A stretch of 64,000 nucleotides of DNA from Candidatus Omnitrophota bacterium (GTDB lineage Bacteria > Omnitrophota > Gorgyraeia > JABMRN01 > RBG-13-46-9), in the NCBI GenBank assembly GCA_013203315.1, contig JABMQJ010000029.1:635-64634 (forward strand), in the 5' to 3' direction. Below, one piece after another: positions 2,626-32,026 of the stretch. Each line of letters begins with the position of its first letter. Position 1 is the first letter of the stretch. A program made the translations under genes and the position numbers. Below the pieces are notes generated by a model. It searched no databases, had not been told where the DNA came from, and saw only the letters and a list, made by a program, of their open reading frames with translations.

Positions 2626-2632
2626 TCAACAA

Positions 2633-4566: not shown

Positions 4567-4611
4567 AAGCCCAGTATAAATAGGAATCAAGCAGTTTAGA
4601 AAGGGATAATC

Positions 4612-4971: not shown

Positions 4972-5020
4972 TACCGCATTTTACATTTTCCCAAACCCAT
5001 TCCCCTAGTAGCTAACAAGG

Positions 5021-5049
5021 TTGACAATACTAATTTCCTATGATATATT
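5021..5049 (+). promoter_or_regulatory. sigma70-like promoter TTGACA-N17-TGaTATATT (extended -10)
   Basis: TTGACA at 5021-5026, then TG-n-TATATT at 5041-5049. The ORF-track TTG start at 5021 is actually the -35 hexamer. Confidence 0.4.
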
Positions 5050-5071
5050 GAATCCAATTCGAACGGTTATT

Positions 5072-6103: not shown

Positions 6104-6114
6104 GGCAGGGTGTG

Positions 6115-15300: not shown

Positions 15301-15483
15301 GCTTTAGAAAGGCCGCCGCAGCCGCCCGGCAAAGACACGCTTAAATCACCCATGCCCGATGCGATGCCGGATACAAGGCCCGGCCGGGATACCACGCATA
15401 GAAGAAAAACCCCTAAAGTCGGAAGAAATGACCCCTGTCCCTGCGGAAGCGGGCGTAAGCATAAGAAATGTTGCGGAAAATAA
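12352..15483 (+). CDS. secA: Preprotein translocase ATPase SecA
   Basis: DEAD-like motor motifs, an extended preprotein cross-linking domain (PPXD) and variable region, and a C-terminal SEC-C zinc motif DPCPCGSGRKHKKCCGK. 1043 aa. Confidence 0.95.
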   Translation: MKFILNKIFGSQNKKELAKVEPVVEKINKLESEVSKLSDSQLRQKTDKFREHIKTEKEKLAQAIEGLESRMETAAFAQEKDKLKLQLRALKNRIFDGILPEAFAVVRETARRNVGMRHFDVQLVGGVVMHEGKIAEMATGEGKTLVATLPAYLNALTGEGVHIVTVNDYLAKRDSEWMGPIYKFLGLSVGVIQHDMSPEARQKAYACDIVYGTNNEFGFDYLRDNMIIRKEDIVQRKFNFAIVDEVDSILIDESRTPLIISGPTNTTNTAYVEMKPVVDHISRLQRRLVEELLLKLKSIVNDKEKEEETKKLLYLLHKGSPKERQFLDLVLKNTKIKVLFDKATSTYDSKMMEGDRVTLLEGLYFVFDEKTREVTFTSKGEDVMRQKFNVEFIIEDLETKLSKITGDKDLTEEQKLVKESEITAQYVAQQKRVDSIKQLLKAYILFRKDVDYVIHENKIIIVDEFTGRMMPGRRFSDGIHESIEAKEGVEVQRESQTLATVTLQNFFRMYGKLAGMTGTAATEADEFEKIYGLHVVVIPTNKPLKRTNLSDVIYKTEKEKFGAICDKITDLYEKGRPVLVGTISIEKSEILGEMLKRRNVPHFVLNAKYHEMEAHIVAQAGRFKAITIATNMAGRGTDILLGGNPEYLAEDALSNLSIESAEERASVKNKYLEEYRAKTRQEHDKVVELDGLHVIGTERHESRRVDNQLRGRAGRQGDPGSSRFYLSLEDTLMRIFGSDRIKMIMERLGMEEGQEIEHPLVTRAIRTAQKRVETQNFEIRKQLLKYDNVMNQQRELIYSRRRHAILEDSLKEDIFETLEGILEGWLVNPSENEEYLKNFCKNLRFKFLLNFHPENFSGLSKDEIIKKIIEISRLHYAKKEKILGEEKTQTLEKMITLGVIDSNWKDYLFSMDQLREGIMWRSYGQKDPLVEYQHEAFAMFGNLINTIDEDIVERLFKTFAIEEKFTQRVFKREEETFIHEEYSALERPPQPPGKDTLKSPMPDAMPDTRPGRDTTHRRKTPKVGRNDPCPCGSGRKHKKCCGK

Positions 15484-17006
15484 CACCTTCTTTAAAAACA
15501 AATCTCATATCTCAGCTCGTACTAGCTTTTGTATCCGCTTTTCTTTTAGTTTTGTGCTATCCGAACTTTAACCTCGGATTTTTAGCCTGGATTGCACTCA
15601 TCCCGTTATTTTTTGCCATTGAAAATAAAAAATCAAAAACCCGATTTTTTACGGGTTATCTTTTCGGTATTATATTTTTTGCAGGTATTTTATACTGGCT
15701 TGCTAACGTAACCGTGCCGGGAACAATTGCTACGGTGCTTATACTCGCCTTCCTACCCGCTATATTTTGTTTACTCGCCTCTCCGTCCATTGCATCACGC
15801 CCGGGATCGGTTGTATTTTTACCGTGCGCGTGGGTTCTTACCGAATACCTGCGCACGTATATTTTTAGCGGTTTTCCATGGGCACTTTTGGGATATTCCC
15901 AAAGCCCTAATCTCCCGGTGATACAAATAGCAGACATAACAGGCCCATACGGCGTTTCATTTTTAATTGTTCTTGTAAATGTCGGAATATACTTGGCGTT
16001 ACGAAGAAAACCGAAAAGATTTTACATTTTATTTTTTATAACTGTTTTATTTGCTTTAGTTTTAGTCTACGGCGACAATAGAATCAAACGCGCTTATCCT
16101 GCTAAGCTCCTAAAGGTTGCCGTCATACAGGGAAATATCCCGCAAGAGATGAAGTGGGACCCGCGGTATAGAGAATTTATCCTGAATAAATATAAAATGC
16201 TTACGCAGGTGGCATTAAAAGAATCTCCGGGCCTTGTGGTTTGGCCCGAGACGGCCGTGCCCGGTTATTTGGACGAACCGGATTTGGAAAAGCAAATAAC
16301 AAACCTTGCAAAATCCGGTAATGCATATCTTCTGGTAGGTACGCTTAAAGAGGTAGGGTCGAAAGTCTTTAATAGCGCCACACTTATTTCCAATAAAGGC
16401 GAAATTCTAAAAAGCTATAACAAGATTCATCTTGTTCCGTTCGGCGAATTTATTCCGTTTGAGAAAGCATTCTTGTGGATGCGCGGGGTTATCGATAAAC
16501 CCATCGGAAATTTCGCGCGCGGAAATGAATTTACCGTATTTAAATTTAATTTAGAAAAAGTTACGCGCACAACGAGCAAAATTCAAAAGAGCATGGAGTT
16601 TCATAGCTTTTCGACCCTTGTATGTTTTGAAGACATTTTTCCCGACCTTTGCAGAAAATTCGTTAAAAAAGGAGCCAGATTCTTGGTGAACATAACAAAT
16701 GATGCCTGGTTCGGGAAAAGCCCCGCACTTTATCAACATGCGCAGGGCTCTGTTTTTAGGGCAGTTGAAAACCGTGTCCCGGTTATCCGCGCCGCAAATA
16801 CCGGTTTTTCATGCATCATAGACCATAGGGGGAAAATTTTAAAGTCTGTCAAAGTCGGAGAAGACGAAATATCCGTAGACGGTTACGCCGTAGAGGTAAT
16901 AATGCCTACTTTTATAAAAACAATTTATACGCGCTTCGGGGACGTGTTTAGCTGGTTATGCATAGCTTATGTGCTTCTTGGGCTTTGGCGTCGCAGGAGG
17001 CCCTGA
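15468..17006 (+). CDS. lnt: Apolipoprotein N-acyltransferase
   Basis: N-terminal multi-TM region followed by a CN-hydrolase domain (VAVIQGNIPQEMKWD...; ...WPETAVP...) and a C-terminal TM segment. Confidence 0.85.
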   Translation: MLRKITPSLKTNLISQLVLAFVSAFLLVLCYPNFNLGFLAWIALIPLFFAIENKKSKTRFFTGYLFGIIFFAGILYWLANVTVPGTIATVLILAFLPAIFCLLASPSIASRPGSVVFLPCAWVLTEYLRTYIFSGFPWALLGYSQSPNLPVIQIADITGPYGVSFLIVLVNVGIYLALRRKPKRFYILFFITVLFALVLVYGDNRIKRAYPAKLLKVAVIQGNIPQEMKWDPRYREFILNKYKMLTQVALKESPGLVVWPETAVPGYLDEPDLEKQITNLAKSGNAYLLVGTLKEVGSKVFNSATLISNKGEILKSYNKIHLVPFGEFIPFEKAFLWMRGVIDKPIGNFARGNEFTVFKFNLEKVTRTTSKIQKSMEFHSFSTLVCFEDIFPDLCRKFVKKGARFLVNITNDAWFGKSPALYQHAQGSVFRAVENRVPVIRAANTGFSCIIDHRGKILKSVKVGEDEISVDGYAVEVIMPTFIKTIYTRFGDVFSWLCIAYVLLGLWRRRRP

Positions 17007-17007
17007 A

Positions 17008-17667: not shown

Positions 17668-17816
17668 TAGGAAAATCAAAAGTTAAGAAAGACATTGCGA
17701 ACACAATGCGACCTTCCGGTTTGAATGAGCGGCTAATTTTAGGTAAGTTCCTACGTTACCGCCAGTTGTGAAAATACTTTACCTTTAAAGAATTAAATGG
17801 TAGACTAATCAAAAAT

Positions 17817-19166
17817 ATGGGACACAAGGCCAGATTAAAAAAAATAAAGAAGCTATTACCCCATCAAAACAAGCCCCCCGCACTTCCGATTGAAAGCAAA
17901 TTCCCAAATTCTCTTAAAACAACAGTAGTATTTCTTTTGTTATTTTCGTTGCTTTTCACCGGGGCAATCTTACGTCTCCAAAATCTTTCAAATGTGCAAA
18001 GAAGGACCCCTGACGAGCTTGTATATACACGTCAAGCCGGCATAATAACACAACAGGGCACCGAAGGCATACGGCGTTTGATACGCGAATATAACGCCGA
18101 CGAAAAACAATGGATATATCCGCCTCCAACGAGGGTGGGCTATCTTTGGACCCTTGCCGTTTTCATGAAAATGGTTAGCAAGAACACTTTGGAAGTAGGC
18201 GCGTATCTTTCTTGTTTTTTTAGCATAATCTCTTTAATACTTTTGGTGGTACTGGGGTTAAGATTTTTTAACAGATGGATTACCTTATACGCCCTTCTCT
18301 TTATGAACGTTTCTCCTGTTGCCCTGGCGATCGCGCGGAGAACATGGCAGGATGCTATGCTGGGTGCCGTTGGACTTTCGCTTATCTGGCTTTCCTGCGA
18401 GATAATTCGCGCTACTAACAAAATCAAATGGATTATTGTTTTTATATTAATCGGAAGCTACGCTACATTAATTAAGGAATCAGGAATGCTTATTTATGGT
18501 TTATGCGCTGCGTGGCTCCTTTTTACTTTCCTGATAAATGAAAAGTCATTTAAAAAAGCGATTCTTTTAATGACTTTAGGCGGTCTGGGCATAGTAATTA
18601 GCGTTGTTTATCTATCGCATGCTGCCGGAGGATTCTCGAATATTCTGGAAGTCTGGCAACACGTTAAAGAAGCGATGCCTACCAATAGATATGCGATTGA
18701 ATATCAATCAGGGCCATGGTATCAATTTGTTGGAAGCGCATGGATAGTAAGCCCTGTAAACACAATTCTATTCCTCATAGGAATGTTGGGTACTTTTTTC
18801 TCCCGTTCATCAGATTCTCGCAGCCCTGCTTCAGCAATCGATAAAAATCGGAATATAATTTTTGGAATTATAATTTTTATTATAACATTTATGAGCATAA
18901 CCGTTTTAACGCCTTACTGCCAAAATGTAAGATATGTAAGCGTATTATTTGCGCCGTTCTATCTGGTAGGCGGCGTGGGGTTGTGGCATATTATGACATA
19001 TATCAGGAGCAAACTCGATAATTTCTATTTTTCTATTGTTGTTGCGTGTGTTGTTGTGTCGCTTATTATCAGTGCGGCGATGGATTATCAGAATTTCATC
19101 AAAATATTTGTCAAAAAAAGTGCTATAGATACGTCGATCCGAACATTGAGGGAATGTTCTAACTAA
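17817..19166 (+). CDS. Polytopic membrane glycosyltransferase of the ArnT/PMT (GT83/GT39, GT-C) type
   Basis: First extracytoplasmic loop carries RTPDELVYTRQAG, resembling the ArnT/PMT DE-x-RYA motif. About 11 TM segments. Family assignment is from memory. Confidence 0.5.
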   Translation: MGHKARLKKIKKLLPHQNKPPALPIESKFPNSLKTTVVFLLLFSLLFTGAILRLQNLSNVQRRTPDELVYTRQAGIITQQGTEGIRRLIREYNADEKQWIYPPPTRVGYLWTLAVFMKMVSKNTLEVGAYLSCFFSIISLILLVVLGLRFFNRWITLYALLFMNVSPVALAIARRTWQDAMLGAVGLSLIWLSCEIIRATNKIKWIIVFILIGSYATLIKESGMLIYGLCAAWLLFTFLINEKSFKKAILLMTLGGLGIVISVVYLSHAAGGFSNILEVWQHVKEAMPTNRYAIEYQSGPWYQFVGSAWIVSPVNTILFLIGMLGTFFSRSSDSRSPASAIDKNRNIIFGIIIFIITFMSITVLTPYCQNVRYVSVLFAPFYLVGGVGLWHIMTYIRSKLDNFYFSIVVACVVVSLIISAAMDYQNFIKIFVKKSAIDTSIRTLRECSN

Positions 19167-19197
19167 ATTTATAACAAATCTTAAAGCGGAGATAAAA

Positions 19198-20895
19198 ATG
19201 GTAACCAAGCAAATAAAATGCAATTTATGCAACTCTACTAATTACGAAATACTTTATAGTGGAAAAACGAAAGATCCCAAAAATCCATCCGGCGAAAAGA
19301 AGGCCTATTCGATATCAGAATGGAATATTCAGCAACCGGAGAAACTTGTTAAATGCAATAATTGTGGTCTGGTTTTTGCCTTGCAGGACAGGAACCTGAG
19401 GTATTATGTCGACGCATATTCCAAGATGGTTGATAAGGAATATAGAGAGGAAGAGCAAGGAAGACGCAGGGCGAGCGTAGAAATTTTGAAGCGCATTAAA
19501 AAATATAAAAATAACGGAAAACTATTAGACATAGGATGCGCAACCGGATTTTTACTCGATGAGGCAAGAAGGAGAAATTGGGAAGTATACGGCGTTGAAA
19601 TTTCAAAATGGGCCTCGAACTATGCTAGGGAAAAACTAGACCTAAATGTAGTAAGAGGGCCTCTCAAGAAAACCGATTTTCCAGATAAATACTTCGATGC
19701 CATAGTTATGCTGGACGTTTTGGAGCATTTAACCAATCCGAAATACGCCCTGTTAGAGATACGAAGGATTTTAAAAAGCGATGGTATTCTATACATAAGC
19801 ACACCGAACATAAATAGTCTCTTAAGCAGGATCCTGAAAGCAAAATGGTGGGGAATAAACAAGTTTCATCTTTTTTACTTTTCAAAACGTACATTAGAAA
19901 AAATGCTGGACGCTTGCGGCTTCAAGGTGAAGAAATATAAGCCTCATATAAGAATATTTTCGATCAAGTACTGGGCTAAAAGATTAAAGGCTTATAGCGT
20001 GACATTGTACCGGATTTTAGACTTTATTTCCAGAATTGATCATTTTGGAAGGATACTTTTGGGCGTAAATCTTCATGACCAGATAGAGACTGTAGCGGTG
20101 AAAGCCAGAAAATTAGATTATTTAGCTAATTCAGTTACTACAAAAAATAAAAAAGTGATCAAAAAAAATATGAAGGTTATCGTTGTTTTACCGGCATATA
20201 ATGCCGAGAAAACGTTAAAAAGAACTTTTGACGATATACCCAAGGATATAGTTGACGAAATTATTTTAGTTGACGATAAGAGCAAAGATAAAACTGTAAA
20301 AGTCGCTAAAGCCTTAGGATTGGAAATTGTACAACATAAAAAGAATATTGGTTATGGCGGCAATCAAAAGACGTGTTATAAAAAAGCGCTTGAACAGGGT
20401 GCTGATATAGTGGTAATGGTGCATCCGGATTATCAATATGATCCAACCATAATACCTAAGCTTATAGAACCTATACGGGCTGGGAGGGCGGATGCTGTTT
20501 TTGGCTCGCGCATGATGAAAGGCGGAGCGCTCGAAGGTGGTATGCCACTTTGGAAACACAATACAAATATTTTGTTAACCGCTTTTGAAAATGTTGTATT
20601 AGGAACATATCTGACAGAATATCACTCAGGGTTTCGAGCTTATAGCGCAGATTTATTAAGGACAGTAAATTTTGAACTGAACAGCAATAACTTTGTTTTT
20701 GATGCAGAAATAATAGTCCAGACCCTGATCTACCATTTTAAAATCGAAGAAATTCCGATACAGACAAGGTATTTTGACGAAGCATCTAAAATAAAGTTTT
20801 TGCCAAGCATAGGTTATGGGTTGGGTATAATCTGGACTATGACCAAATATCTTCTACACATAAAAGGTATTTATAAATTCCGGCAATTTGAATAA
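19198..20895 (+). CDS. Bifunctional protein: Zn-ribbon + class I SAM methyltransferase fused to a GT2 polyprenyl-phosphate glycosyltransferase (DPM1/ArnC/GtrB-like)
   Basis: N-terminal CxxC...CxxC, then LLDIGCATGF...VEIS...MLDVLEHL (SAM methyltransferase motifs I and post-I). C-terminal half has VIVVLPAYNAE...LVDDKSKD...DAVFGSR, typical of GT2 enzymes that build lipid-phosphate-sugar donors. Confidence 0.75.
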   Translation: MVTKQIKCNLCNSTNYEILYSGKTKDPKNPSGEKKAYSISEWNIQQPEKLVKCNNCGLVFALQDRNLRYYVDAYSKMVDKEYREEEQGRRRASVEILKRIKKYKNNGKLLDIGCATGFLLDEARRRNWEVYGVEISKWASNYAREKLDLNVVRGPLKKTDFPDKYFDAIVMLDVLEHLTNPKYALLEIRRILKSDGILYISTPNINSLLSRILKAKWWGINKFHLFYFSKRTLEKMLDACGFKVKKYKPHIRIFSIKYWAKRLKAYSVTLYRILDFISRIDHFGRILLGVNLHDQIETVAVKARKLDYLANSVTTKNKKVIKKNMKVIVVLPAYNAEKTLKRTFDDIPKDIVDEIILVDDKSKDKTVKVAKALGLEIVQHKKNIGYGGNQKTCYKKALEQGADIVVMVHPDYQYDPTIIPKLIEPIRAGRADAVFGSRMMKGGALEGGMPLWKHNTNILLTAFENVVLGTYLTEYHSGFRAYSADLLRTVNFELNSNNFVFDAEIIVQTLIYHFKIEEIPIQTRYFDEASKIKFLPSIGYGLGIIWTMTKYLLHIKGIYKFRQFE

Positions 20896-20910
20896 TTTAA
20901 ATTTCACATC

Positions 20911-20985
20911 ATCCAAAAAGCCCTGCCCAAGCTCCTGTATGTATTGCCTCTGAGATATGCCCTGCTTCGACGGTTTCTTTTAAAA
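20911..20985. repeat. Degraded copy of the last ~75 nt of yifB/comM; direct repeat of 32194..32268
   Basis: About 88% identity with one 1-nt indel. Reverse-complement translation gives KETVEAGHISEAI... versus the authentic KETIEAGHISEAISYRSLDRDFWIG*. It sits in a 350-nt intergenic gap. Confidence 0.7.
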
Positions 20986-21244
20986 TCCGGAAGCTCGTCT
21001 AAAAATAGCACCCCGTTATTCTAGATAGTAAATATTCATAACGGTATATAAACAAATAAGTTGTAACAGAAAATGGATAAGAGATAAGAACTAGCTTTTA
21101 TCATTATTGCCTTGCCGATATATCTTAGTACTTCTCAAGTTGTTTATTTCCCAAGGAAATGATATACTTACCACATTAGACATAATAAAGGCATATCGGT
21201 ATGGGTTTTGCTTGAAATTTACTCGATCACAAGGACAATAAGTC

Positions 21245-22456
21245 ATGAATATTAAATTAATGCGAAATCTGGATGAACTTCTAGGTCCGTCAATCTGTTT
21301 TATATTTCACATTTATAATTGCGTAAGGAAACTATTTATTAAACCGAAGTTATTGCCGGTCAATAAAATACTTTTACTCAAGTTTTTTGGAATGGGAAGT
21401 ATTGTATTAACAGGACCGATGGTAAGAGCCCTAAGAAGCAAATTTACCGATGCTAAAATTACAATATTTACTTTTTCTGCTAATAAAGAAATATGCGAAC
21501 TTACACAACTATTTGATGAAGTGGTGCTCATAAATACTAATTCTTTTGCAGCTCTATTATCTAGCGTTTTGAATGGCATGTTATATTTAAGAAAACAAAG
21601 ATTTGATATATGTATTGATTTAGAATTCTTTACAAAATTTTCTACAATTCTTTGTTATCTGTCAGGAAGCCGGATACGAGTCGGTTATTTCTTGATACAA
21701 ATTGGCATTCTTCTCAAAATGATGTGGCGTGGCAATCTGCTTACGCATCAGGTTTATTTTAATCAACACAAACACGCAACTGAAGTGTTTGTGGCTCTCG
21801 CAAATTCCATAGGTGCTGATACAAAAGATTATAGTTATGCGCAATTACACCTACCCTTAGCCGCCTCCAATTCGATCAACCAGATTTTAAGTCCTTATTT
21901 AAAACAGAAAGAAAAATTAATCGCTGTAAATGTAAACGCAAGCCCTTTATGCTTAGAAAGAAGATGGCCGAAAGAAAATTTTGCACAAATAATAATCAAA
22001 CTTCTTTCAGATGCGAAAGAAGTCAAGGTCGCTTTAGTTGGCGGGAAAGATGATGTGCCATATGTAAATTCGTTTCTTGATATTTTGCAAAAGGAGATAA
22101 ATAAAGATAGAATAATAAATTTAACTGGAAGGCTGTCAATAGCGGAACTGACAGCCCTGTTGATGAAAGCACAATTGTTTATAACAAATGATAGCGGCCC
22201 ACTTCACATCGCCGTGTCATTAGGAAAGCCGACCGTTTCATTTTTTGGTCCGGAAAGCCCCAGACGCTTTGGTCCCAAAGATGATATGCACTTAGTATTG
22301 TATTGTGAGAAAGTATATTGTACCCCTTGCCTTAATGTTTACAGTCAGAAAATCTCCTTTTGCAACGGCAATAATATTTGCCTTAAGTCAATACAGCCAG
22401 ACGATGCTTATAGATTGTTAAGACAGAAGTATAAATTTTTGTTTCAAAATGAATAA
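21245..22456 (+). CDS. Glycosyltransferase family 9 (LPS heptosyltransferase-like)
   Basis: GMGSIVLTGPMVRAL near the N-terminus; C-terminal ITNDSGPLHIAVSLGKPTVSFFGP, typical of RfaC/RfaF/RfaQ-type GT9 enzymes. Confidence 0.8.
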   Translation: MNIKLMRNLDELLGPSICFIFHIYNCVRKLFIKPKLLPVNKILLLKFFGMGSIVLTGPMVRALRSKFTDAKITIFTFSANKEICELTQLFDEVVLINTNSFAALLSSVLNGMLYLRKQRFDICIDLEFFTKFSTILCYLSGSRIRVGYFLIQIGILLKMMWRGNLLTHQVYFNQHKHATEVFVALANSIGADTKDYSYAQLHLPLAASNSINQILSPYLKQKEKLIAVNVNASPLCLERRWPKENFAQIIIKLLSDAKEVKVALVGGKDDVPYVNSFLDILQKEINKDRIINLTGRLSIAELTALLMKAQLFITNDSGPLHIAVSLGKPTVSFFGPESPRRFGPKDDMHLVLYCEKVYCTPCLNVYSQKISFCNGNNICLKSIQPDDAYRLLRQKYKFLFQNE

Positions 22457-23342: not shown

Positions 23343-25176
23343 AAAAATATCTAGAAATACTTCTTGTCCTTGCGGGAGTGGCAAAAAGTATAAAAATTGC
23401 TGCAGGGGCAAGTCTACAATTTTTAACACAGCCAAAAACCTCGGCAGTCGTACCGCGACCCCTGCATGGATTAGCCCTTTAGTGTCGACGGTTTTTAAGA
23501 TTTTCGGCTATGTAATAATACCTCTTTTAATAATCATGTTGCTAAGGGAGCCGAATTTTCTAAATGGATTTATAGATCATCTTGAGATGGGACAGTATCT
23601 TTCGTCGGTAAATGGTATTTTTGAGGGTAAGACACCGTATAAAGATTTTTTTACTCTTTTTGGTGCATTCCAACTTTATGCTATTACGTTTTTCATGTTT
23701 TTGTTCGGAAAGACAATAGCTGTTCTGAAAACATTTTTTTACATTGGTTACATTTTAAGCTTTCTGGCTATTTATATTTTGGCAAGAAATGTATACAAAA
23801 ATAGATTTTTTATGTATTTTATACCACTTATATGTTTGGTGGAAGTAAGCCATCCATTCTGGGCAACCTCTTGGGATTATGGAAGGATGGGGCTGGGGCT
23901 TTTAATAATAACATTTTTAATTAAGTTTTTAGCAAAAGAAAATGTGAAATTCCTGTTAATTGCAGGAACCGTTTCTTGCTTTGCCCTGTTTTACAGTATT
24001 GATGTAGGCGCTTTTTCAATGATTTCAGCCACTTTTTTTATTTTGATTTGGTCCATAAGTCAAAAGATAAAAAATCCCATAGCTTTCATTAAACATCTCT
24101 TCCGAAATATTACTTACTATGGTCTAGGGGTGTTATTGATAATGCTTCCCTTTTTTGCATTTTTGTACTACAGAGGCGCCCTAAGTCCTTATTTGAAAAC
24201 AACCTTCTATATAATACCCAAATACCACATGGAGGTATGGGGGCAATCAATAGTGCAATTCCCATGGGAATCTATTAATAGTTTACCTCAGTTCTTTTTG
24301 TTGGCAAAATCAATGATTTTTAAGATGTATCTCCCTGTACTTTTATACACACTTATTTTTATTTATTTAATCTTGTCTTTCTTTATGAAGAAATGGGGCA
24401 AGGATAAGATGGTTATGTTGATCCTGCTTGTCTATGGAGTGCTTGTATACAAGGCATCTTTTCGCGCAATATCAGGGCCACAGTTTCAAGTGGCATTGCC
24501 GCCTTTAATTATTTTGATTGGTCTATTTTTAGAAAGGATGGCCAACTCTCTCGCTGCAATTTATAAACAGAAAGAAATAACTTGGACTCTAAGCAAAGGA
24601 ATCCCATTAAAGGCTATTTCTTCCGTTTTGCTTATTTTATTATGTTTTTTCTACTTTCTAGTTTCAGAAAAAAGATATTATGGCACGCTTCACGGCTGGA
24701 TACAGCATCAGACTTTGAAAAAATATATTTCATCGGGCTATACGAAACCTTTACTGATTAGCAGTCTGAATCTTGTAAGACCACGTATTGAGAGATCGGG
24801 GAATATCATGATTCTTCCACAGCAGGCAGGCAAAATGGAAAAGGTAGTAAGCTATTTAGAAGAAAATACAGAAGAGAATGAAGAAGTATTTACCTTTCCG
24901 GAACATGGTTTGTATAATTTTTTAGCGGACAGACCGGCATTCAGCAGGTTTTACATTGCGGGTTTTGCGTGGACTACTCCAGAATGGAGGTCAGAACTTT
25001 TAAATGAGTTGGCTAGAAAAAAACCAAAAGTCGTAGTGTATTGTACTAGACTTTCTAACATGGCAAAAAGTATTAATAGGTCAAAAGAACTTCTGCCTGA
25101 AGTAAGCGAATTTATTGTCAATAATTATCATGTGTCCAGGAAATTCTACGATATTATTATCTATGAAAGAAATTAA
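23335..25176 (+). CDS. Polytopic membrane protein with an N-terminal SEC-C zinc-binding motif and a C-terminal soluble domain (GT-C-like architecture, family unassigned)
   Basis: ORF track 23284..25176. ATG 23335 gives MIKKISRNTSCPCGSGKKYKNCC, a SEC-C motif like the SecA C-terminus. About 12 TM segments follow, then a ~170-aa hydrophilic C-terminal domain. Confidence 0.6.
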   Translation: MIKKISRNTSCPCGSGKKYKNCCRGKSTIFNTAKNLGSRTATPAWISPLVSTVFKIFGYVIIPLLIIMLLREPNFLNGFIDHLEMGQYLSSVNGIFEGKTPYKDFFTLFGAFQLYAITFFMFLFGKTIAVLKTFFYIGYILSFLAIYILARNVYKNRFFMYFIPLICLVEVSHPFWATSWDYGRMGLGLLIITFLIKFLAKENVKFLLIAGTVSCFALFYSIDVGAFSMISATFFILIWSISQKIKNPIAFIKHLFRNITYYGLGVLLIMLPFFAFLYYRGALSPYLKTTFYIIPKYHMEVWGQSIVQFPWESINSLPQFFLLAKSMIFKMYLPVLLYTLIFIYLILSFFMKKWGKDKMVMLILLVYGVLVYKASFRAISGPQFQVALPPLIILIGLFLERMANSLAAIYKQKEITWTLSKGIPLKAISSVLLILLCFFYFLVSEKRYYGTLHGWIQHQTLKKYISSGYTKPLLISSLNLVRPRIERSGNIMILPQQAGKMEKVVSYLEENTEENEEVFTFPEHGLYNFLADRPAFSRFYIAGFAWTTPEWRSELLNELARKKPKVVVYCTRLSNMAKSINRSKELLPEVSEFIVNNYHVSRKFYDIIIYERN

Positions 25177-25224
25177 TGAATCTTTTTATTCCAACTTGTT
25201 CAAATTTGTAGCCTCATCAAGCTA

Positions 25225-25256
25225 ATAGTAGGGCACTCTTAAGAGTGCCCTACTAT
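25225..25256. repeat. Perfect 32-bp palindrome ATAGTAGGGCACTCTT|AAGAGTGCCCTACTAT
   Basis: 16-nt perfect inverted arms with no loop, about 50 nt after the stop of the 630-aa gene. Not followed by a T-run. Confidence 0.8.
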
Positions 25257-25363
25257 GTGGATAAGTATACTGCCGGGAAAGGCGAAATTGGCGCGAGTTT
25301 TTGAACGCGCTTAAAAAAGGGATCGGCGCAGTTTAAAGTTTATTAAAGAAGATCCTTAAAAAC

Positions 25364-26524
25364 ATGCATGATAAAAATTGCTTAAAATTAGCCGTTGTTA
25401 GCATCTTTGACACTAATAATGCGCAAGATTGGTCCGGCATTCCTTTTTATATGACGAAAGGTTTAAGGAAGTATTTTCCCGCTCTTGATACCGTAGGCCC
25501 TTTGCGCTATAAAGATTCATGGATCTTAAAGAAGAAAAATTTGATTTATCAGCGCTTCTTCCAAAGTAAGTTTTTCCCGCAATATGATATCTCCTCTTTA
25601 AAATATTTTTCCAAACAAGTATCTGAAAAAATTCAGGGAAAAAAAATAGATGTTATTTTTAGTATTCACCCGGATCCAATCGCGTTTTTTCAAACAGACA
25701 AGCCCGTAATTTTTACTAGTGATGCAACTTTTGCAAGCTTACTGAGGCTTTACCCTGCACTACGCAATTTAAGCCGTGAAAGCGTCAGAAACGGGCACCT
25801 TTTATTCCAACGAGCTATAGATAAATGCGCACTGGCGATTTTTCCTTCCGAGTGGGCAGCAGAAAGCGCCAGGCAGGATTATGGCACTGACCCCCGGAAG
25901 GTTCACGTGATTCCTTATGGAGCGAACATTGATAATGATCGGAACCGGGACGATATAATGAAACTTATAGAATCTCGCTCTAAAAATGTTTGTAAATTAC
26001 TTTTTATCGGCGTAGATTGGAAGCGCAAAAGAGGGGACGCAGCGGTAAGGATAGCCGTAGAGTTGAATCGACGGGGTTTAAAAACAGAGCTATATATTGT
26101 CGGATGCCATCCACCTTCCGGGGAGAAACTTCCCGATTTTGTGAAAAAGCTTGGGTATATTGACAAGAAATCCAAGGCCGGAGGAGAGCAGCTTCGCAAG
26201 CTTTTTGAGGAATCTCATTTTTTTGTTCTTCCATCTCAAGCCGAATGTTTCGGGATTGTTTTTTGTGAAGCCAATTCTTTCGGAATGCCGTGTATAGCAA
26301 CAAACATCGGAGGAATACCCACGATATTTAAGGATAACCTAAACGGCAAACTCTTTCCCGTTGAAAACATGGTAGAAGGGGCGACGCAGTACATTCTTCA
26401 AATATTTCCGCGATTCGATCATTATCAAGAGCTTTGTCTCTCTTCCTTCGAAGAGTATAAAAACCGTTTAAACTGGGATACTTTTTCTGAGAAGACCAGG
26501 GAACTTATTACAACAGTGCTTTAA
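25364..26524 (+). CDS. Glycosyltransferase family 4 (GT-B, RfaB/WcaL-like)
   Basis: C-terminal EsHFFVLPSQAECFGIVFCEANSFGMPCIATNIGGIP matches the GT4 EX7E region. Confidence 0.8.
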   Translation: MHDKNCLKLAVVSIFDTNNAQDWSGIPFYMTKGLRKYFPALDTVGPLRYKDSWILKKKNLIYQRFFQSKFFPQYDISSLKYFSKQVSEKIQGKKIDVIFSIHPDPIAFFQTDKPVIFTSDATFASLLRLYPALRNLSRESVRNGHLLFQRAIDKCALAIFPSEWAAESARQDYGTDPRKVHVIPYGANIDNDRNRDDIMKLIESRSKNVCKLLFIGVDWKRKRGDAAVRIAVELNRRGLKTELYIVGCHPPSGEKLPDFVKKLGYIDKKSKAGGEQLRKLFEESHFFVLPSQAECFGIVFCEANSFGMPCIATNIGGIPTIFKDNLNGKLFPVENMVEGATQYILQIFPRFDHYQELCLSSFEEYKNRLNWDTFSEKTRELITTVL

Positions 26525-26573
26525 AAGGTAAGGCATTAAAATGATATTATACTAAAAGGAGCTATCAGCAAAA

Positions 26574-28148
26574 ATGAAGCCGGAACAGAAAAAATATATC
26601 GCAGGATTCAATCAACGCAAAACCCACATCATTCTTGTTATATTATTGATTGGTGTGGTCGCTATTATATATGCGAATTCATTCGGAGGCCCATTTTTGT
26701 TCGACGACAATGCTTTAGTAAAAAACAATACTTTAATCAGGACTTTATCAAATATACCAAAATTTTTTAAAACAGATATTTGGGCATATAATGTCGATGC
26801 AAAACCCATCAGCAATTCATATAGACCTATACAAGTTGTTACATATGCCATTGATTTTTTCTTATATGGAAATGACCCTAAAGGATTCCATTTTACCAAT
26901 ATCTTGGTACATCTTTTTAATGTTCTATTAGTCTTTTTGCTCGTCAAAGAAATTTTTAATAATAGGTTCATGCCATTTTTTGTCTCTCTATTGTTTGGGA
27001 TACACCCTGCAAATACAGCATGCGTGTCTTATATTTCAGGTAGAGCAGATGTCTTAGTCACGGCATTTATGCTTTTGTCTATCATATCTTACATTAAGTA
27101 TGTCAAAAATGAGCGATTATATTTTTTACTATTTTCTGTTTTGTCATATTCATTTGCCGTATATTCCAAAGAATACGCGATATTGGTTGTGCCATGTATT
27201 TTATTTTTGTATAATATTATTTCCGATAGAAAAATTATTTTCAAGATTAAGCCTTATATTTTTTATATTTTACCACTGGCACTTTACTTACCAATGAGAA
27301 TGCATGCTTTAACAGGCTTAACTTCACGAACTTTGGAACTTTCAACAATAAACTTACTTCCCAGATTACTGACTTCTTTAAAAACATTATTCATTGATAT
27401 TAGAATACTGTTTTTACCTTACGACCTTCACTTCGGAAGAAGTACCAAGGTTGAATATTCAATTTTTGGTAGCCCCTATTCTATTCTTACTATTCTGGGA
27501 CTCGTGCTCGTTACATGCGCTTTAAGACGTATGTATAAAAAATGGAAAATAGAGAAAAATACGGAAAGCGGAATTATATTTTTCGGTATTTCATGGTTTT
27601 TTGCTTCCATGATACCACTGCTTAACGTCTTTCCCCTCCAGGTTTTTCATGCCGATAGCTGGCTCTATTTTTCGTCTATTGGGGTATACATAGCTTTTGC
27701 CGCAGCAATAAATTATATTTGGCAATTACTTAGCAAGAAAAGTGCATTATTTAGGAACGTTCTTTGTATATTAATTTGCTTTATGTTTTTATATTATGGA
27801 TATACTACGGTAAGGCGGAATGAAGACTACCAAAGTGAAATAAAATTTTATCTTTCTAGCGTAAAATGGAGACCAAGTGTGAAATTCTATAGAGTTATAG
27901 GAGGGTTGTATGGCAAAAAGGGGGACTATAATAACGCTGTGAAATATTTGCAGAAAGCAATTGAAGTTAACAAAACCTACCCTTCACCAGAAGTAACAGC
28001 CGCATACTATAATTTAGGAATTACGTATATGAGGTTATCCGAATATAAAAAAGCAGAAGAAACTTTTGAGAAAGTAATGATGTCAAACGATGAATCCCTA
28101 AAAAAAGAAACCGCAAAATACTTATTATATATTAAGCGGCATAGATAA
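26574..28148 (+). CDS. TMTC/PMT-like polytopic membrane protein with C-terminal TPR repeats (DUF1736-type putative protein O-glycosyltransferase)
   Basis: About 10 TM segments and a conserved YRPIQVVTYAIDFFLYG...FHFTNILVHLFNVLLVF block. C-terminal TPRs (...YNLGITYMRLSEYKKAEETFEKV...). Confidence 0.6.
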   Translation: MKPEQKKYIAGFNQRKTHIILVILLIGVVAIIYANSFGGPFLFDDNALVKNNTLIRTLSNIPKFFKTDIWAYNVDAKPISNSYRPIQVVTYAIDFFLYGNDPKGFHFTNILVHLFNVLLVFLLVKEIFNNRFMPFFVSLLFGIHPANTACVSYISGRADVLVTAFMLLSIISYIKYVKNERLYFLLFSVLSYSFAVYSKEYAILVVPCILFLYNIISDRKIIFKIKPYIFYILPLALYLPMRMHALTGLTSRTLELSTINLLPRLLTSLKTLFIDIRILFLPYDLHFGRSTKVEYSIFGSPYSILTILGLVLVTCALRRMYKKWKIEKNTESGIIFFGISWFFASMIPLLNVFPLQVFHADSWLYFSSIGVYIAFAAAINYIWQLLSKKSALFRNVLCILICFMFLYYGYTTVRRNEDYQSEIKFYLSSVKWRPSVKFYRVIGGLYGKKGDYNNAVKYLQKAIEVNKTYPSPEVTAAYYNLGITYMRLSEYKKAEETFEKVMMSNDESLKKETAKYLLYIKRHR

Positions 28149-28321
28149 ACGCATGTTGCGCATAAATTTTATTAATCCCAACACAGCCAAAAAACCCTAT
28201 CCAAGCCCATTATATATTTATTTATAATTCGATTTCCCCGCCGCTACAACTTTTTAGAAAGTCATGTCCTTGCAAAGATTAATAGATAATGGTATATTTG
28301 AAGTAAAATAAGGAGGTTTTT

Positions 28322-28624
28322 ATGAATAAGGCATTGTTAGTGGCCGCACTTTTCATCTGTATACCTGTTGTGCTCGTTTGTGAAATGGCGGAAAGCCAAC
28401 AAGAGCAAGTTAAGCCCAAAAAAGTGGAAGTGGATTCCAATTATGATGGCGTGGTTGACCGTATCGAATTTTATGATAATAACGGACAAATAGTAAAAAT
28501 AGAATTTGATAGGACAGGCGATGGTAAAATAGACGAGTGGGTAACCTACAAAAACGGACAACCGTCTGATGTTGAAAGAGATACGAACGCAGACGGTAAG
28601 CCGGATGTCTGGATGGAATATTAG
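28322..28624 (+). CDS. Small secreted protein with three DxDxDG calcium-binding-like loops
   Basis: Signal peptide MNKALLVAALFICIPVVLVC. Loops DSNYDGVVDRIEF, DRTGDGKIDEWV and DTNADGKPDVWMEY. Good AAGGAGG SD. Confidence 0.6.
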   Translation: MNKALLVAALFICIPVVLVCEMAESQQEQVKPKKVEVDSNYDGVVDRIEFYDNNGQIVKIEFDRTGDGKIDEWVTYKNGQPSDVERDTNADGKPDVWMEY

Positions 28625-28740
28625 AATCTAAACTATATATTGTGGAAGGGATCCTTATATCAGTCGTAGTGACCCGATTTGATAAAAGTGGCAAGAAACT
28701 CCGGTATTAGACCGGGAATATTAACCACGGAGAGACCTTG

Positions 28741-28930
28741 AAAAAGCCCGATAAATACAATGCCCTTGCAGTAACCCTTTTAATTATACTGGCAATAGTT
28801 TCGCACCTGCCGAGCTTCAGCTTATATAATGTTGGGCGATAAAGAGAATGCGCTTAAATACTGGAAAAAGTCTTTGGCAATCAATCCAAATCAGCCGGAT
28901 TTGAAAAAATATATTTTACGTAATAAATAA
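28741..28930 (+). pseudogene. Frameshifted remnant of the C-terminal TM/TPR end of a TMTC-like protein
   Basis: Frame a reads ...NALAVTLLIILAIVSHLPSFSLYNVGR*. One nucleotide out of frame it continues AYIMLGDKENALKYWKKSLAINPNQPDLKKYILRNK*, a TPR consensus. No start codon and no SD. Confidence 0.45.
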
Positions 28931-29026
28931 TTTTCCAGTCAATCAAAACAAAAAGATAGATAATATAGTAATATACGCAAAGCAAACAAGTAAAAGAAAT
29001 TGCTATAACAACAGTTAAGGAAAATT

Positions 29027-30262
29027 TTGTCAAAAAAGGAAAATTTAACCAATTTTGCTAAGGCTGGGTACCAGAAACAGGGAACAAGGCAAACGGTAAA
29101 TAACTTTCTAGTCATTATAACCGTCGCATTTATTGTCCATATGATACCTGTTTTGCTAGGTGCCGATTCCGCGGATATTTTGCTTTATAAAATACAAGCC
29201 TATCCCATACTTAAAGGGCTAAATATATATAGCGTTACTCACAAAATATTTCCCTATTCGCCTGTATCAATGTTTATTCCGGCTTTATGTGCCAAGATAT
29301 CTTTCTGGCTAAATATCCCGTTTTACATAATTATGAAAATTCCTGCTGTGTTGGGAGATGTTTTCACAGCTGGAGCACTCTATTTGATATTCTCAAAGCT
29401 AGATCCAAAAAATAGCTATTTTTTGGGATTATTTTATGCTTTAAATCCGCTTTCTCTATTGATAGGTTCTTTTCATGGGAATATGATGTCAGTTCCTACG
29501 CTATTTATGTTCCTTTCTTATGTGGTTTTACTTTATGGCGTAGAGAGTAATTACAGATTGTCGGCCTTATTGCTGGGACTGGCGATCGGTTTTAGAGGAT
29601 TCCCTGTTCTACTATTGCCGCTATTTTTGATCAAGTTGCCATTACCCCTAAAAAAGCGGGTGGAGTATTTAATATATGCAACAATTCCCACCGCTTTATC
29701 TTTTGTGCCGTTTCTTTTATTAGATTATAGATCTGTTCTTAAAGAAGTCTTCGCTTACAGCGGTTGGGCAGATTATGGTTTTCTAGCTATATTAAGGGGG
29801 ATATTGTCTATTAAAGTAGGAATTTTGGCATATGGTTTGCCTGGCAACCTTCAGGTCATCCTTACAAGTATCACAAAAAAGTTTTTCTTTATAATGTACT
29901 TTATAATCATTTTAGGATTTAGAAAAAAGAGATTAATAGACTTAATTGTTGCTGTTTTTCTCATTTTTTATTTTATATATGCGAGTGTAGCTTCTCAATA
30001 TTTTCTCTGGATCTTGCCATTTATTTTCTTGACCAAGGATCGTTTACTTAAATTTTATCTGATTATATGTTCGCTGGCTCTTATAGGTTTTTATTATCTA
30101 TATCATCCACAGATACTTTTTGGTAGATTTGATGTTGTTAAACTGCCATTAAAAACTCTTCTCTTTAATGAAGTTGTGTGGATGACTGCCCTGTGGCTGT
30201 TATGTGGTTTTTGGATTTTATGTTTGATATTTAGAAAAAGGGAAAATGAAATCTTTATTTAA
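29027..30262 (+). CDS. Polytopic membrane protein, GT-C/DUF2029-like putative glycosyltransferase
   Basis: TTG start. Eleven or more TM segments with loop residues resembling PIG-M/GT87-type mannosyltransferases. Assignment is weak. Confidence 0.4.
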   Translation: MSKKENLTNFAKAGYQKQGTRQTVNNFLVIITVAFIVHMIPVLLGADSADILLYKIQAYPILKGLNIYSVTHKIFPYSPVSMFIPALCAKISFWLNIPFYIIMKIPAVLGDVFTAGALYLIFSKLDPKNSYFLGLFYALNPLSLLIGSFHGNMMSVPTLFMFLSYVVLLYGVESNYRLSALLLGLAIGFRGFPVLLLPLFLIKLPLPLKKRVEYLIYATIPTALSFVPFLLLDYRSVLKEVFAYSGWADYGFLAILRGILSIKVGILAYGLPGNLQVILTSITKKFFFIMYFIIILGFRKKRLIDLIVAVFLIFYFIYASVASQYFLWILPFIFLTKDRLLKFYLIICSLALIGFYYLYHPQILFGRFDVVKLPLKTLLFNEVVWMTALWLLCGFWILCLIFRKRENEIFI

Positions 30263-30389
30263 ACTAAGGCTATCAGAAAAGATTGTAATAGGCTATTTTA
30301 TCCTGTTATATATTTGGGAAATTATTTATATCTTGAATATGAAAAAGTAATAATGCTAAACTGCAAGTCATTAGAAAAAAGAGCTGAAG

Positions 30390-30491
30390 ATGGAATTGTT
30401 TACTGATTCCACTGTTTCCGAGAAGCGTGACATGTTCCACTTTGTTGTCTTTCCGTGCAACGCGGGCAGCTCTGCGGCACAGAATGACTAA
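30390..30491 (+). CDS. Hypothetical 33-aa peptide (MELFTDSTVSEKRDMFHFVVFPCNAGSSAAQND) upstream of the radical SAM gene
   Basis: Short ORF in a locally GC-richer patch, with a weak SD. Speculative. Confidence 0.2.
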   Translation: MELFTDSTVSEKRDMFHFVVFPCNAGSSAAQND

Positions 30492-30580
30492 TACCCACCA
30501 CTCTATTATTCCAAAACCATTTATGCTATACTATAAATAATATTATTATACAAATAGCTGTAAAAAGGCTAGGTGGAGCA

Positions 30581-31999
30581 ATGCGAATTGCATTCGTGCA
30601 GAACTTGGCAGTTGAATATATGGGGGTTATGTATCTTTCCGCGGCACTGAAAGAAAACTCCCACAAAACTGAAATATTTATAGACAACGGAAACAGAAAG
30701 ATGTTCCGTGAAATCAAAGATTACAACCCGCATTTAATTGCTTTTTCCTGCACAACGGGATTGCATGAGTGGTGTTTGAATGTGGCAAGAGAGCTAAAAA
30801 AAATAGTCCCGGCAAAGGTTATTCTCGGTGGTTCCCACCCGACTTTTTTTCCAGAAGTAATAGAATCAGAGTTTGTAGACATAATATGCAGGGGGGAAGG
30901 GGATGGCGCTATTTTAGATTTAGCCAACAAAATGGAGGGTAAGAGTGATTATACGAAAACGCCGAATCTCTGGGTTTCGGTATCCGGAAAGATTATAAAA
31001 AACGACGTTCGCCCGTTGATAAAGAATCTCGACCTGTTACCTTTTCCAGATAGACAACTATACGAAGGTAAGTATCCTTACCTGAAAACCAGTCAGAAAG
31101 GAATCTTTACGGGCAGGGGATGCCCATTTAGCTGCTCCTACTGCTTTAATGATACCCTGAGGAATATCTATCGAGGAAAGGGGCAATACGTTAGAAAAAG
31201 GAGCGTTGACAATGTTATCGAGGAAATAGAACTATTGAGAAAAGAAGGCAAGGTAGAAACGGTCTATTTCGAGGATGACGTTTTTTTGATTGGCAGGGAA
31301 TGGTTTGAAGAATTCGCGGTGAAATACAGGCATAAAGTTAATATTCCGTATATTTGCCTTTTGAGGGTAGAAAGCATCAACGAACAAATTGTAAAAATGC
31401 TGAAAGAATCAAATTGCAGAAACGTATTTTTTGGCGTAGAAACCGGGTCCGAAGAGATAAGATTTAGATTGCTCAAGAGACGTATGACCGACAGGCAGAT
31501 TGTGGCCGCCGCCGCCCTTCTTAAGAAATACAATATAGGTTTTCGCACATACAATATTTTGGGGTTGCCCGAAGAGACAATAGAGGACGCGTTCAAAACA
31601 GTCCATCTCAACACTAGTATAGGGACGGATTATCCCTGGTGTTCGCTGCTTTATCCGTACCCCGGAACGGAAATTAATACGTATGCCCTTAAGCGTAACC
31701 TTATTTCAGATAAGGCCGACGACAGGAGTCATATATCTTTCTTCAAAAGCAGCGTGATAAAATTGGATAATAAAAATGAATTGGAGAACCTACAGAAATT
31801 ATTTTTTTATGCCGTAAAATTTCCAAGACTCGAGGGCATAATAAGAAAGCTTATAAAGATAAAACCAAACTTTATATTTAGTATCCTGTTTCTGCTAAGT
31901 TACGGGTGGTGTTCCTGGAAGAGCGAAAACCATAAAATCTCCGAAATAATTGTTCGGGGAATTAAGAATATATTTAAGTTATATTTTAAATCTAGTTGA
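30581..31999 (+). CDS. B12-binding domain radical SAM protein
   Basis: N-terminal cobalamin-binding region (HLIAFSCTT...ILGGSHPTFFP) followed by a radical SAM CxxxCxxC motif (GRGCPFSCSYCFN). Confidence 0.8.
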   Translation: MRIAFVQNLAVEYMGVMYLSAALKENSHKTEIFIDNGNRKMFREIKDYNPHLIAFSCTTGLHEWCLNVARELKKIVPAKVILGGSHPTFFPEVIESEFVDIICRGEGDGAILDLANKMEGKSDYTKTPNLWVSVSGKIIKNDVRPLIKNLDLLPFPDRQLYEGKYPYLKTSQKGIFTGRGCPFSCSYCFNDTLRNIYRGKGQYVRKRSVDNVIEEIELLRKEGKVETVYFEDDVFLIGREWFEEFAVKYRHKVNIPYICLLRVESINEQIVKMLKESNCRNVFFGVETGSEEIRFRLLKRRMTDRQIVAAAALLKKYNIGFRTYNILGLPEETIEDAFKTVHLNTSIGTDYPWCSLLYPYPGTEINTYALKRNLISDKADDRSHISFFKSSVIKLDNKNELENLQKLFFYAVKFPRLEGIIRKLIKIKPNFIFSILFLLSYGWCSWKSENHKISEIIVRGIKNIFKLYFKSS

Positions 32000-32026
32000 T
32001 TACTGAGAAACGGTTATGAAGCTAAA

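Follow-up and report, generated by a model that had tools for sequence, protein, structure and literature searches.

A candidate lipid-phosphate-sugar and GT-C glycosylation module shared by Omnitrophota and Acidobacteriota

Systems that combine a lipid-phosphate-sugar synthase with membrane glycosyltransferases (GTs) of the GT-C class underlie Arn antibiotic resistance, Gtr serotype conversion, the mycobacterial wall and eukaryotic O- and C-mannosylation. GT-C enzymes require a lipid-linked donor. The Haloferax Agl system includes the dolichol-phosphate (Dol-P) hexose synthases AglJ and AglD, the lipid-linked-glycan methyltransferase AglP and the extracellular Dol-P-mannose (Dol-P-Man) transferase AglS. 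Three-component systems are exemplified by GtrA/GtrB/Gtr* and by the Citrobacter set of PPPRS, MATE and GT136 with an auxiliary epimerase, and cytoplasmic enzymes such as the epimerase ORF13 and DprE1/E2 edit lipid-linked monosaccharide donors before these are flipped (PMC11127046). Here we analyzed a candidate glycosylation cluster of Candidatus Omnitrophota bacterium. It occupies 17.8-32.0 kb, with all genes on the + strand, of a 64,000-nucleotide stretch of contig JABMQJ010000029.1, which as a whole is called the window below.

We propose that this cluster serves glycosylation outside the cytoplasm by a system that combines a lipid-phosphate-sugar synthase with GT-C enzymes, which sequence comparisons and structural models make rather probable. 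The core consists of the membrane protein GT-C449, a fusion of a methyltransferase (MT) with a GT2 enzyme, a TMTC-like GT-C with tetratricopeptide repeats (TPRs) and a GT-C resembling PIG-M and GT87 enzymes. The window had been annotated before from its letters alone (the sequence-only reading). The list of open reading frames (ORFs), Pfam and NCBIfam bear out the domain calls made by eye in that reading, and the components that it listed are present at their positions, all on the + strand.

The window was compared with genomic loci of other genomes. The comparison set contained 38 loci anchored on GT-C449 homologues and 7 obtained by exact protein look-up. ORFs of all loci were scored with hidden Markov models of three GT-C alignments, and phmmer was used for the remaining genes. 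One locus, L001, is the same sequence as the window; the remaining comparison involves 44 other loci. In Omnitrophota, at least 15 loci have the MT-GT2 fusion directly after GT-C449. GT-C449, GT2 and MT are adjacent in more than 20 loci; the last two are either fused, both orders being found, or separated by the GT-C (MT, GT-C, GT2 in L010; GT2, GT-C, MT in L006/7). Homologues of the TPR-bearing GT-C adjoin GT-C449 in 18 regions. When 1.8 billion representatives were searched exhaustively with HMMER, 1662 proteins related to the fusion were obtained at E values of 1e-30 or lower. The best 150 of these comprise 8 MT-GT2 and 22 GT2-MT proteins, 83 stand-alone GT2 enzymes, mostly of 220-300 aa, and 37 stand-alone MTs.

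The most compact form of the module was found in six loci of soil Acidobacteriota (metagenome-assembled genomes of Bryobacterales and Solibacteraceae). There the gene order is TMTC-like TPR-GT-C, GT-C449, a GT87 protein with TPRs, and a GT2-MT fusion with the domain order opposite to that in the window. In L029 the four-gene set is flanked by unrelated genes (PhzF, solute symporter, anthranilate synthase). All four families of this compact module are contained in the window. Because both fusion orders exist, the fusion is split around the GT-C and the arrangement is conserved across phyla, we take this as strong evidence that GT2, MT and GT-C449 would act together. The same observations place the TMTC-like and GT87-like GT-Cs in this system. 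The linkage of the core genes recurs in dozens of independent loci of two phyla, so that chance does not explain it and the core is a conserved module.

The fusion protein (565 aa, 19198-20895, + strand) matches Pfam Methyltransf_23 at residues 89-244 (97 bits) and Glycos_transf_2 (PF00535) at residues 329-488 (79 bits). A four-cysteine Zn ribbon and a class I S-adenosylmethionine (SAM) methyltransferase occupy approximately residues 1-300, and a GT2 resembling DPM1, AglJ and PpgS follows at approximately 316-565. A GT2 fused to a SAM methyltransferase had been recognised before; the fusion stands, and the domain order has to be corrected, with the MT N-terminal and the GT2 C-terminal. The best NCBIfam matches of the GT2 were AglJ (4.7e-25; 88.6 bits, cut-off 325), Dol-P-hexose transferase (64.8 bits, cut-off 375) and PpgS (61.5 bits, cut-off 370), all under the cut-off; ArnC gave 22.5 bits against 529. 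Its best match in the PDB was PfDPMS, the Pyrococcus Dol-P-Man synthase (5mlz, 1.2e-14), and GtrB was matched too. Neither a transmembrane (TM) helix above threshold nor a [QR]xxRW motif was found in the fusion protein by hydrophobicity and motif scans. A processive polysaccharide synthase is ruled out by the missing TM helix and QxxRW, and together with the matches listed above this agrees with the earlier assignment to the lipid-phosphate-sugar-synthase type. The C-terminal amphipathic stretch of the GT2 and its size, like that of the TM-less DPM1/PpgS class, fit a predicted peripheral membrane enzyme.

We also analyzed the motifs of the GT2. DDxSxD is located at residues 359-364 and is conserved in 99 relatives. 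HPDYQY (residues 409-414; window 20422-20439) aligns with DADLQH of DPMS, and its residues H409, D411 and Q413 are conserved in 97%, 100% and 96% of these relatives, respectively. The resulting His-x-Asp-x-Gln-Tyr, kept in 96 of the 99, would be an unusual variant of the metal-binding DXD. In the fused MT, CxxC motifs start at residues 8 and 53, and an intact SAM motif DIGC at residue 111. The only solved homologues with an alignment that reaches the Zn ribbon are TcaB9, KijD1 and mycarose C3-MT (E 2e-12 to 5e-11), which are nucleoside diphosphate (NDP)-sugar C3-methyltransferases with a Zn ribbon. Because the ribbon-spanning alignments are all to enzymes of this kind, the comparison points to a sugar as the probable substrate of the fused MT. 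We regard the fusion protein as a candidate polyprenyl-phosphate-sugar synthase with a sugar methyltransferase.

GT-C449 (449 aa, 17817-19166, + strand) is a membrane-only GT-C of the PMT_2 type (PF13231, 31.8 bits, cut-off 26.1) with about 10 hydrophobic helices. The loop-1 motif RTPDELVYTRQAG, quoted in the sequence-only reading, is found at residues 63-75. Within it D66-E67 is invariant over 33 homologues, and so are P102/P104/R106, K220-E221 and R372. Searches of PDB sequences with the family profiles of GT-C449 and of the SEC-C protein described below gave nothing useful, and structure prediction was therefore needed for both. The AlphaFold model of GT-C449 (predicted local distance difference test, pLDDT, 88.7) gave Foldseek matches to STT3 (7e-6, TMq 0.62), ALG9, ArnT, AglB, Pmt4 and PglB. 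We detected no Pfam PMT (PF02366), no MIR domain and no large soluble loop by Pfam scan and in the model. The public name "glycosyltransferase family 39 protein" is not backed, as both PF02366 and MIR are missing.

The TMTC-like core enzyme (524 aa, 26574-28148, + strand) consists of a PMT_2 membrane domain (39.9 bits) and C-terminal TPRs (TPR_1/2/8 at residues 442-502, approximately 2 TPR units detected). In TMTC proteins the DD and SYRP motifs are located in EL1 and KE in EL3, and the Lys-Glu motif contacts the donor phosphate in TMTC/ArnT-type enzymes (PMC7801869). The 524-aa enzyme has all three signatures (DD44-45, SYRP82-85, KE199-200), and the Lys-Glu motif is thus kept both here (K199-E200) and in GT-C449 (K220-E221). 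The TMTC family is further marked by the DUF1736 segment, which is the TM7-TM8 loop. Since DUF1736 is missing, strict membership of the 524-aa enzyme in the TMTC family is rejected.

In several loci these TPR-GT-Cs form tandem arrays, with three members in L002, three in L044 and at least five in L006/7. The contig of L006/L007 (MHFD01000021.1, Omnitrophica RBG_13_46_9) carries three GT-C449 and at least five TPR-GT-C paralogues within approximately 35 kb; in one copy GT2, GT-C and MT are split in this order, and in another the GT-C precedes a fused MT-GT2. The module of L044 is flanked by giant ORFs on the - strand, one at 1-6564 (at least 3062 aa) and one at 18837-21350 (at least 1795 aa, with faint EF-hand matches). 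Giant proteins are a known trait of Omnitrophota, and those of L044 would be candidate glycosylation targets.

The fourth core protein (411 aa, 29027-30262, + strand, about 11 hydrophobic helices) gave by itself no Pfam match with an E value of 0.01 or lower. Its family profile, built on 34 homologues, matched structures of glycosylphosphatidylinositol (GPI) mannosyltransferase 1 (9wno_A, 1.1e-12; 23gx_B, 7e-8). Seven of the 34 homologues match Pfam GT87 and three match PIG-M, and the Acidobacteriota counterpart, GT87-TPR, matches GT87 with 32.8 bits (cut-off 25). D50 in loop 1 is invariant in the 34. We tentatively classify this protein as PIG-M (GT50)/GT87 (PimE)-like; enzymes of the PIG-M and GT87 families use polyprenyl-phosphate-mannose.

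A further GT-C, which is a frequent accessory and not part of the core, is the SEC-C protein (613 aa, 23335-25176, + strand). It had been listed as a polytopic ORF of 630 aa; the ORF is present, and its length is corrected to the 613 aa that the public annotation calls from the ATG at 23335, the ORF being extendable to a TTG at 23284. The AlphaFold model (pLDDT 87.7; predicted template modelling score, pTM, 0.86) gave ArnT (5f15) as the top Foldseek match in the PDB (2.9e-7), with further matches to AglB, STT3, PglB, DPY19 and AftA, and each of these matches, that to ArnT included, has a probability of 1.00. The protein also carries a C-terminal soluble alpha/beta domain. PMT_2 is matched by 3 of its 25 homologues, and E84 is invariant in the family. 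At its cytoplasmic N-terminus, residues 11-23 (window 23335-23410), we observed a SecA-type SEC-C zinc motif, CPCGSGKKYKNCC, scoring 28.7 bits. This motif might anchor the protein to SecB, the ribosome or the translocon. It was dismissed as a hallmark of the family, being present in only 3 of 27 members. Just 3' of this gene, at 25226-25255, the two perfect 13-bp arms of an inverted repeat enclose 4 nt (TAGTAGGGCACTC TTAA GAGTGCCCTACTA). The repeat may be a terminator, or a scar left by recombination at one border of an inserted block.

The sequence-only reading had treated four membrane proteins as GT-C-like, and Pfam, the AlphaFold/Foldseek matches (ArnT, STT3, PglB, ALG9) and the PIG-M profile match agree with it. 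An acidic residue is present in the first loop of each (D66-E67, DD44-45, D50 and E84), and this conserved loop 1 is predicted to be the extracytoplasmic first loop. By sequence and models, each of the four polytopic proteins is a GT-C enzyme. BLASTP found no significant pairwise similarity among them, and because of this they represent separate families, not recent paralogues or tandem duplicates. Profile-profile comparisons between the GT-C families, with probabilities of 8.5% and 4.5%, were uninformative.

That several non-paralogous GT-Cs share a module with only one donor synthase speaks for a different use of the same enzymes, in which the GT-Cs would use one polyprenyl-phosphate sugar to extend a mannan-like chain step by step on a lipid anchor, giving a lipoglycan or periplasmic polysaccharide, and methylation would cap or decorate the chain. 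The models for this are PimE, MptA/B and the Aft/Emb enzymes, which build mycobacterial lipomannan and lipoarabinomannan (LM/LAM) and arabinogalactan. The grouping of the 411-aa enzyme with PIG-M/GT87, the characterised members of which extend lipid-anchored glycans, fits this possibility, and AftA, AftB and Emb were among the Foldseek matches. However, TPRs on two core GT-C families and the TMTC motifs suit recognition of protein rather than glycan, no carbohydrate-binding module was detected, and no PimA/PimB-like GT4 priming enzyme is conserved with the module. We consider stepwise chain synthesis unlikely.

In the pathway that we favour, the GT2 would act as the donor synthase and make a polyprenyl-phosphate sugar. 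This role is proposed because of its family resemblance and because it is the sole cytoplasmic GT conserved with the GT-Cs. In the most economical version the Zn-ribbon SAM methyltransferase, being fused to the synthase, would methylate the lipid-linked monosaccharide before flipping, in parallel to ArnD, DprE1/E2 and the Citrobacter ORF13 epimerase, which edit lipid-linked donors. The donor would then be flipped across the membrane. In the periplasm GT-C449, the TMTC-like TPR enzyme, the PIG-M/GT87-like enzyme and the SEC-C enzyme would attach the sugar at acceptor positions that differ from enzyme to enzyme, and may start and extend a short glycan or decorate separate targets. The recurrent accessories, a second MT and a B12-radical-SAM enzyme, probably modify the glycan further.

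The acceptor is the least certain element of this pathway. A periplasmic or surface protein (O-glycosylation) is favoured because TPRs occur on two core GT-C families, the loop motifs are those of TMTC, and the TPR-GT-Cs form tandem arrays; separate TPR-GT-C paralogues might then serve separate protein targets. In its full form this amounts to a TMTC/PMT-like protein O-glycosylation of Omnitrophota and Acidobacteriota, with a methylated polyprenyl-phosphate hexose donor made by one bifunctional synthase-methyltransferase. We put forward this complete version tentatively, and would not expect all of its parts to hold. If true, it would be the first methylation on a monosaccharide donor still linked to lipid, and eukaryotic TMTC O-mannosylation would have a counterpart in bacteria, with each TPR-GT-C paralogue tuned to different envelope or giant surface proteins.

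Several observations weigh against the proposed system. The GT2 scores far under the NCBIfam equivalog cut-offs (for AglJ 88.6 against 325), and in its subfamily a conserved His (HxD) stands for the first Asp of the DAD of DPMS. Because of these two features it forms a separate subfamily, the acceptor of which could differ; it is a distinct branch of the lipid-phosphate-sugar synthase group and the orthologue of no named enzyme. The fused MT scores better with a generic class I methyltransferase (3cc8, 6e-26) than with sugar C-methyltransferases. Neither the 524-aa enzyme nor any of eight related TPR-GT-Cs matched DUF1736 at E up to 1. The 15 kb need not form one operon, because the intergenic gaps are wide (about 350, 190, 170, 400 and 320 bp) and the GC content dips. 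No ORF for a flippase of the GtrA, SMR or MATE type was found in the cluster or in its intergenic gaps.

Two sets of membrane proteins that have no annotation recur within the related clusters of other loci. L043 (2815-3222) and L044 (16488-16916) encode a protein of 135-142 aa with approximately 3 TM helices, the copies being 40% identical; a homology search detected no counterpart in the window. L003 (13150-15032) and L045 (2250-4102) encode two proteins as a pair, one of 141-143 aa with a single TM helix and one of 472-486 aa with 12 TM helices. The window contains neither set; both are candidates for a flippase or transporter.

Besides the core, the cluster contains two Leloir GTs. The GT9 (21245-22456, + strand) belongs to the heptosyltransferase family (Pfam Glyco_transf_9, 95.5 bits; NCBIfam heptosyltransferase III/II, approximately 90 bits, under the cut-offs), and the GT4 (25364-26524, + strand) matches Glycos_transf_1 (65 bits) and Glyco_transf_4 (40 bits). 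Together with the ArnT match of the SEC-C protein, they bring in the possibility that a (methylated) sugar is transferred onto lipid A phosphates or the core of lipopolysaccharide (LPS), with GT9 and GT4 building the core acceptor. The models are ArnC/ArnD/ArnT, LgmA/B/C and FlmF2/NaxD/FlmK, and the triad of GT2, modifier and GT-C resembles ArnC-ArnD-ArnT, which counts in favour of LPS. The organism also appears to be diderm, with Lnt and Mla genes in the window. Neither GT9 nor GT4, however, has a homologue in any of the other 44 loci. No NCBIfam equivalog of ArnT or ArnC was matched (ArnC 22.5 bits against 529), and four distinct GT-Cs with arrays of TPR paralogues exceed what lipid A modification needs. 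The LPS-core variant of the sequence-only reading thus gained no support, and we regard LPS decoration as quite improbable. GT9 and GT4 form a locus-specific insertion and need not share a pathway with the core.

The nature of this insertion was seen from L044, where GT-C449 is 88% identical to that of the window and MT-GT2 is followed by an orthologue of the 524-aa TPR enzyme (84.5% identity). L044 lacks the whole block of GT9, MT, SEC-C and GT4 (window 21245-26524). Since MT-GT2 directly precedes the TPR enzyme there, the block is an insertion relative to L044. A remnant was detected by tblastn in the 402-bp gap at 28625-29026: the final 29 codons of a further TPR-GT-C paralogue (28835-28921, + strand) match residues 461-489 of the 494-aa TPR-GT-C of L044 (48% identity, E 1e-4), the frame reading GDKENALKYWKKSLAINPNQPDLKKYILRNK and then a stop. 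It points to a deletion in a former tandem TPR-GT-C array.

Such insertions and deletions, and the low GC content of most cluster genes (0.32-0.37 over 20000-30000, against approximately 0.43 in the flanks), would also be expected if there were no unified system and unrelated glycosylation genes had simply gathered in a variable surface-glycan island of the ordinary kind. Hypervariable regions of Omnitrophota are rich in LPS and capsule GTs (bioRxiv 10.64898/2026.06.07.730766), which counts for the island. The co-occurrence of the four core families in two phyla, with fusions and fissions of GT2 and MT, is against it. So is the recurrence of two accessories near GT-C449: SEC-C-type GT-Cs in 4 other loci (adjoining it in L010, L011 and L014, within the cluster in L043) and B12-radical-SAM homologues in 6 (L005, L009, L010, L011, L014, L043). 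For the core this explanation is largely refuted, and we hold it to be very improbable; it can apply only to GT9, GT4 and perhaps the 100-aa protein described below. Gene co-occurrence had been named earlier as a check on the ensemble: the core GT2, MT, GT-C449, TMTC-like and GT87-like genes do recur, and GT9 and GT4 accompany them in the window only. The region behaves like a variable glycan island on a conserved core.

The accessory genes were as follows. The second, stand-alone Zn-ribbon SAM methyltransferase (22449-23342, + strand; Methyltransf_23, 70 bits) has CxxC motifs at residues 12 and 36 and DIGC at 101. Its paralogy with the fused MT was correctly recognised from the start; the two are 34% identical over 285 aa (E 1e-47). 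Stand-alone MTs of the same family flank the GT-C in L006/7, L009, L010, L011, L024, L043 and L045. The class B radical SAM enzyme (30581-31999, + strand) has an N-terminal B12-binding domain (PF02310, 57.6 bits), a radical SAM core (PF04055, 81.3 bits) with CxxxCxxC at residues 181-188 (C181, C185, C188), and a hydrophobic C-terminal tail, in keeping with its earlier identification. A role as HpnJ in hopanoid synthesis was rejected, because HpnJ, the best NCBIfam match, has 132.8 bits, far under its cut-off of 577.6, and the calls include no HpnI-like GT. The small secreted or periplasmic protein of 100 aa (28322-28624, + strand) has a signal-peptide-like N-terminus, with one hydrophobic segment, and Asp-rich repeats. 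Only weak matches to Lsa25.6 (25 bits) and DUF6802 were obtained, and the protein was not found in the other loci compared.

We also analyzed the setting of the cluster. On the + strand the order of genes is release factor (RF), SecA, Lnt, staphylococcal-nuclease (SNase)-like protein, GT-C449, Zn-ribbon/MT/GT2 fusion, GT9, second MT, SEC-C GT-C, GT4, PMT_2 with TPRs, 100-aa secreted protein, 411-aa polytopic protein and B12-radical-SAM enzyme. YifB/ComM-like and YraN-like housekeeping genes lie downstream on the - strand. The gene for Lnt (15468-17006, + strand; Pfam LNT_N and CN_hydrolase) lies upstream, as had been reported, and the cluster does not begin directly after it: a homologue of SNase with an N-terminal hydrophobic segment (16969/17008-17667, + strand) overlaps the end of lnt and intervenes before GT-C449. 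A Lnt homologue within 10 kb of the module was observed only in the window (the same as L001) and L007, out of about 40 regions. The SecA-Lnt-SNase synteny is retained in L007 (Omnitrophica RBG_13_46_9), and upstream genes differ elsewhere. Because lnt adjacency is limited to these two, it is best explained as local synteny, not as functional evidence, and the analogy with mycobacterial Lnt-Ppm1 drawn in the sequence-only reading is not supported. Further along the window, at 41828-48659, we observed housekeeping genes for a McsB-like arginine kinase and a ClpC/ClpB-type AAA+ ATPase, together with the MlaE-MlaF-MlaD operon for lipid transport. The Mla operon and Lnt are consistent with a predicted diderm envelope.

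The module is a compact recurrent set (GT2 with MT, GT-C449, TMTC-like and GT87-like enzymes) common to two poorly studied phyla that are abundant in the environment. Omnitrophota are thought to be host-dependent. Methylation of the donor on the lipid, if it occurs, would add a novel type of donor editing, and with proteins as acceptors, should this be the case, the module would offer a tractable bacterial model of TMTC-type glycosylation and a handle on Omnitrophota surface biology. The four-gene version of Acidobacteriota is small enough for a heterologous host. The ensemble had been described as largely uncharacterised in bacteria, and we likewise found no published description of this module in the literature.

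Finally, we compared the cluster with known systems. It shares with the Gtr and GT136 systems the cytoplasmic synthesis of a polyprenyl-phosphate monosaccharide, extracytoplasmic transfer by a GT-C and possible editing of the donor by an auxiliary enzyme, as far as these functions are predicted here. It differs from them in that it has no recognisable flippase gene, the role of auxiliary enzyme falls to a synthase-fused SAM methyltransferase, the module has three to four distinct GT-Cs rather than one, two families of which bear TPRs, and it lies outside any O-antigen locus. With the Arn systems (ArnC-ArnD-ArnT, LgmABC, FlmF2/NaxD/FlmK) it has in common the logic of GT2 synthase, donor modifier and GT-C, and ArnT was a top structural match; the modifier is a methyltransferase here and a deformylase or deacetylase there, several GT-Cs are present, and no match to ArnC or ArnT reaches equivalog level.

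Actinobacterial Ppm1 (with Lnt/Ppm2), PMT and PimE are similar in that a TM-less DPM1-like synthase feeds PMT-type and GT87-type GT-Cs, and lnt is near. In contrast to them, the lnt adjacency is not conserved here, GT-C449 has neither MIR nor PF02366, and the synthase has HxD for DAD and an additional methyltransferase domain. TMTC1-4 (PMC7801869) have the same N-terminal GT-C domain, C-terminal TPRs and DD/SYRP/KE motifs in EL1 and EL3 as the 524-aa protein, which differs, as do its eight relatives, in lacking DUF1736, and has approximately 2 detected TPR units. The likeness to the Haloferax Agl system lies in AglJ, the best NCBIfam match of the GT2; that system, however, is an archaeal N-glycosylation with the AglB oligosaccharyltransferase, and the GT2 remains far under the equivalog cut-off. 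In summary, these results suggest that the cluster is a variant of the known systems of synthase and GT-C, orthologous to no named member, and that its distinguishing features are the synthase-fused methyltransferase, three to four unrelated GT-Cs, TPR-bearing members and the lack of a dedicated flippase.

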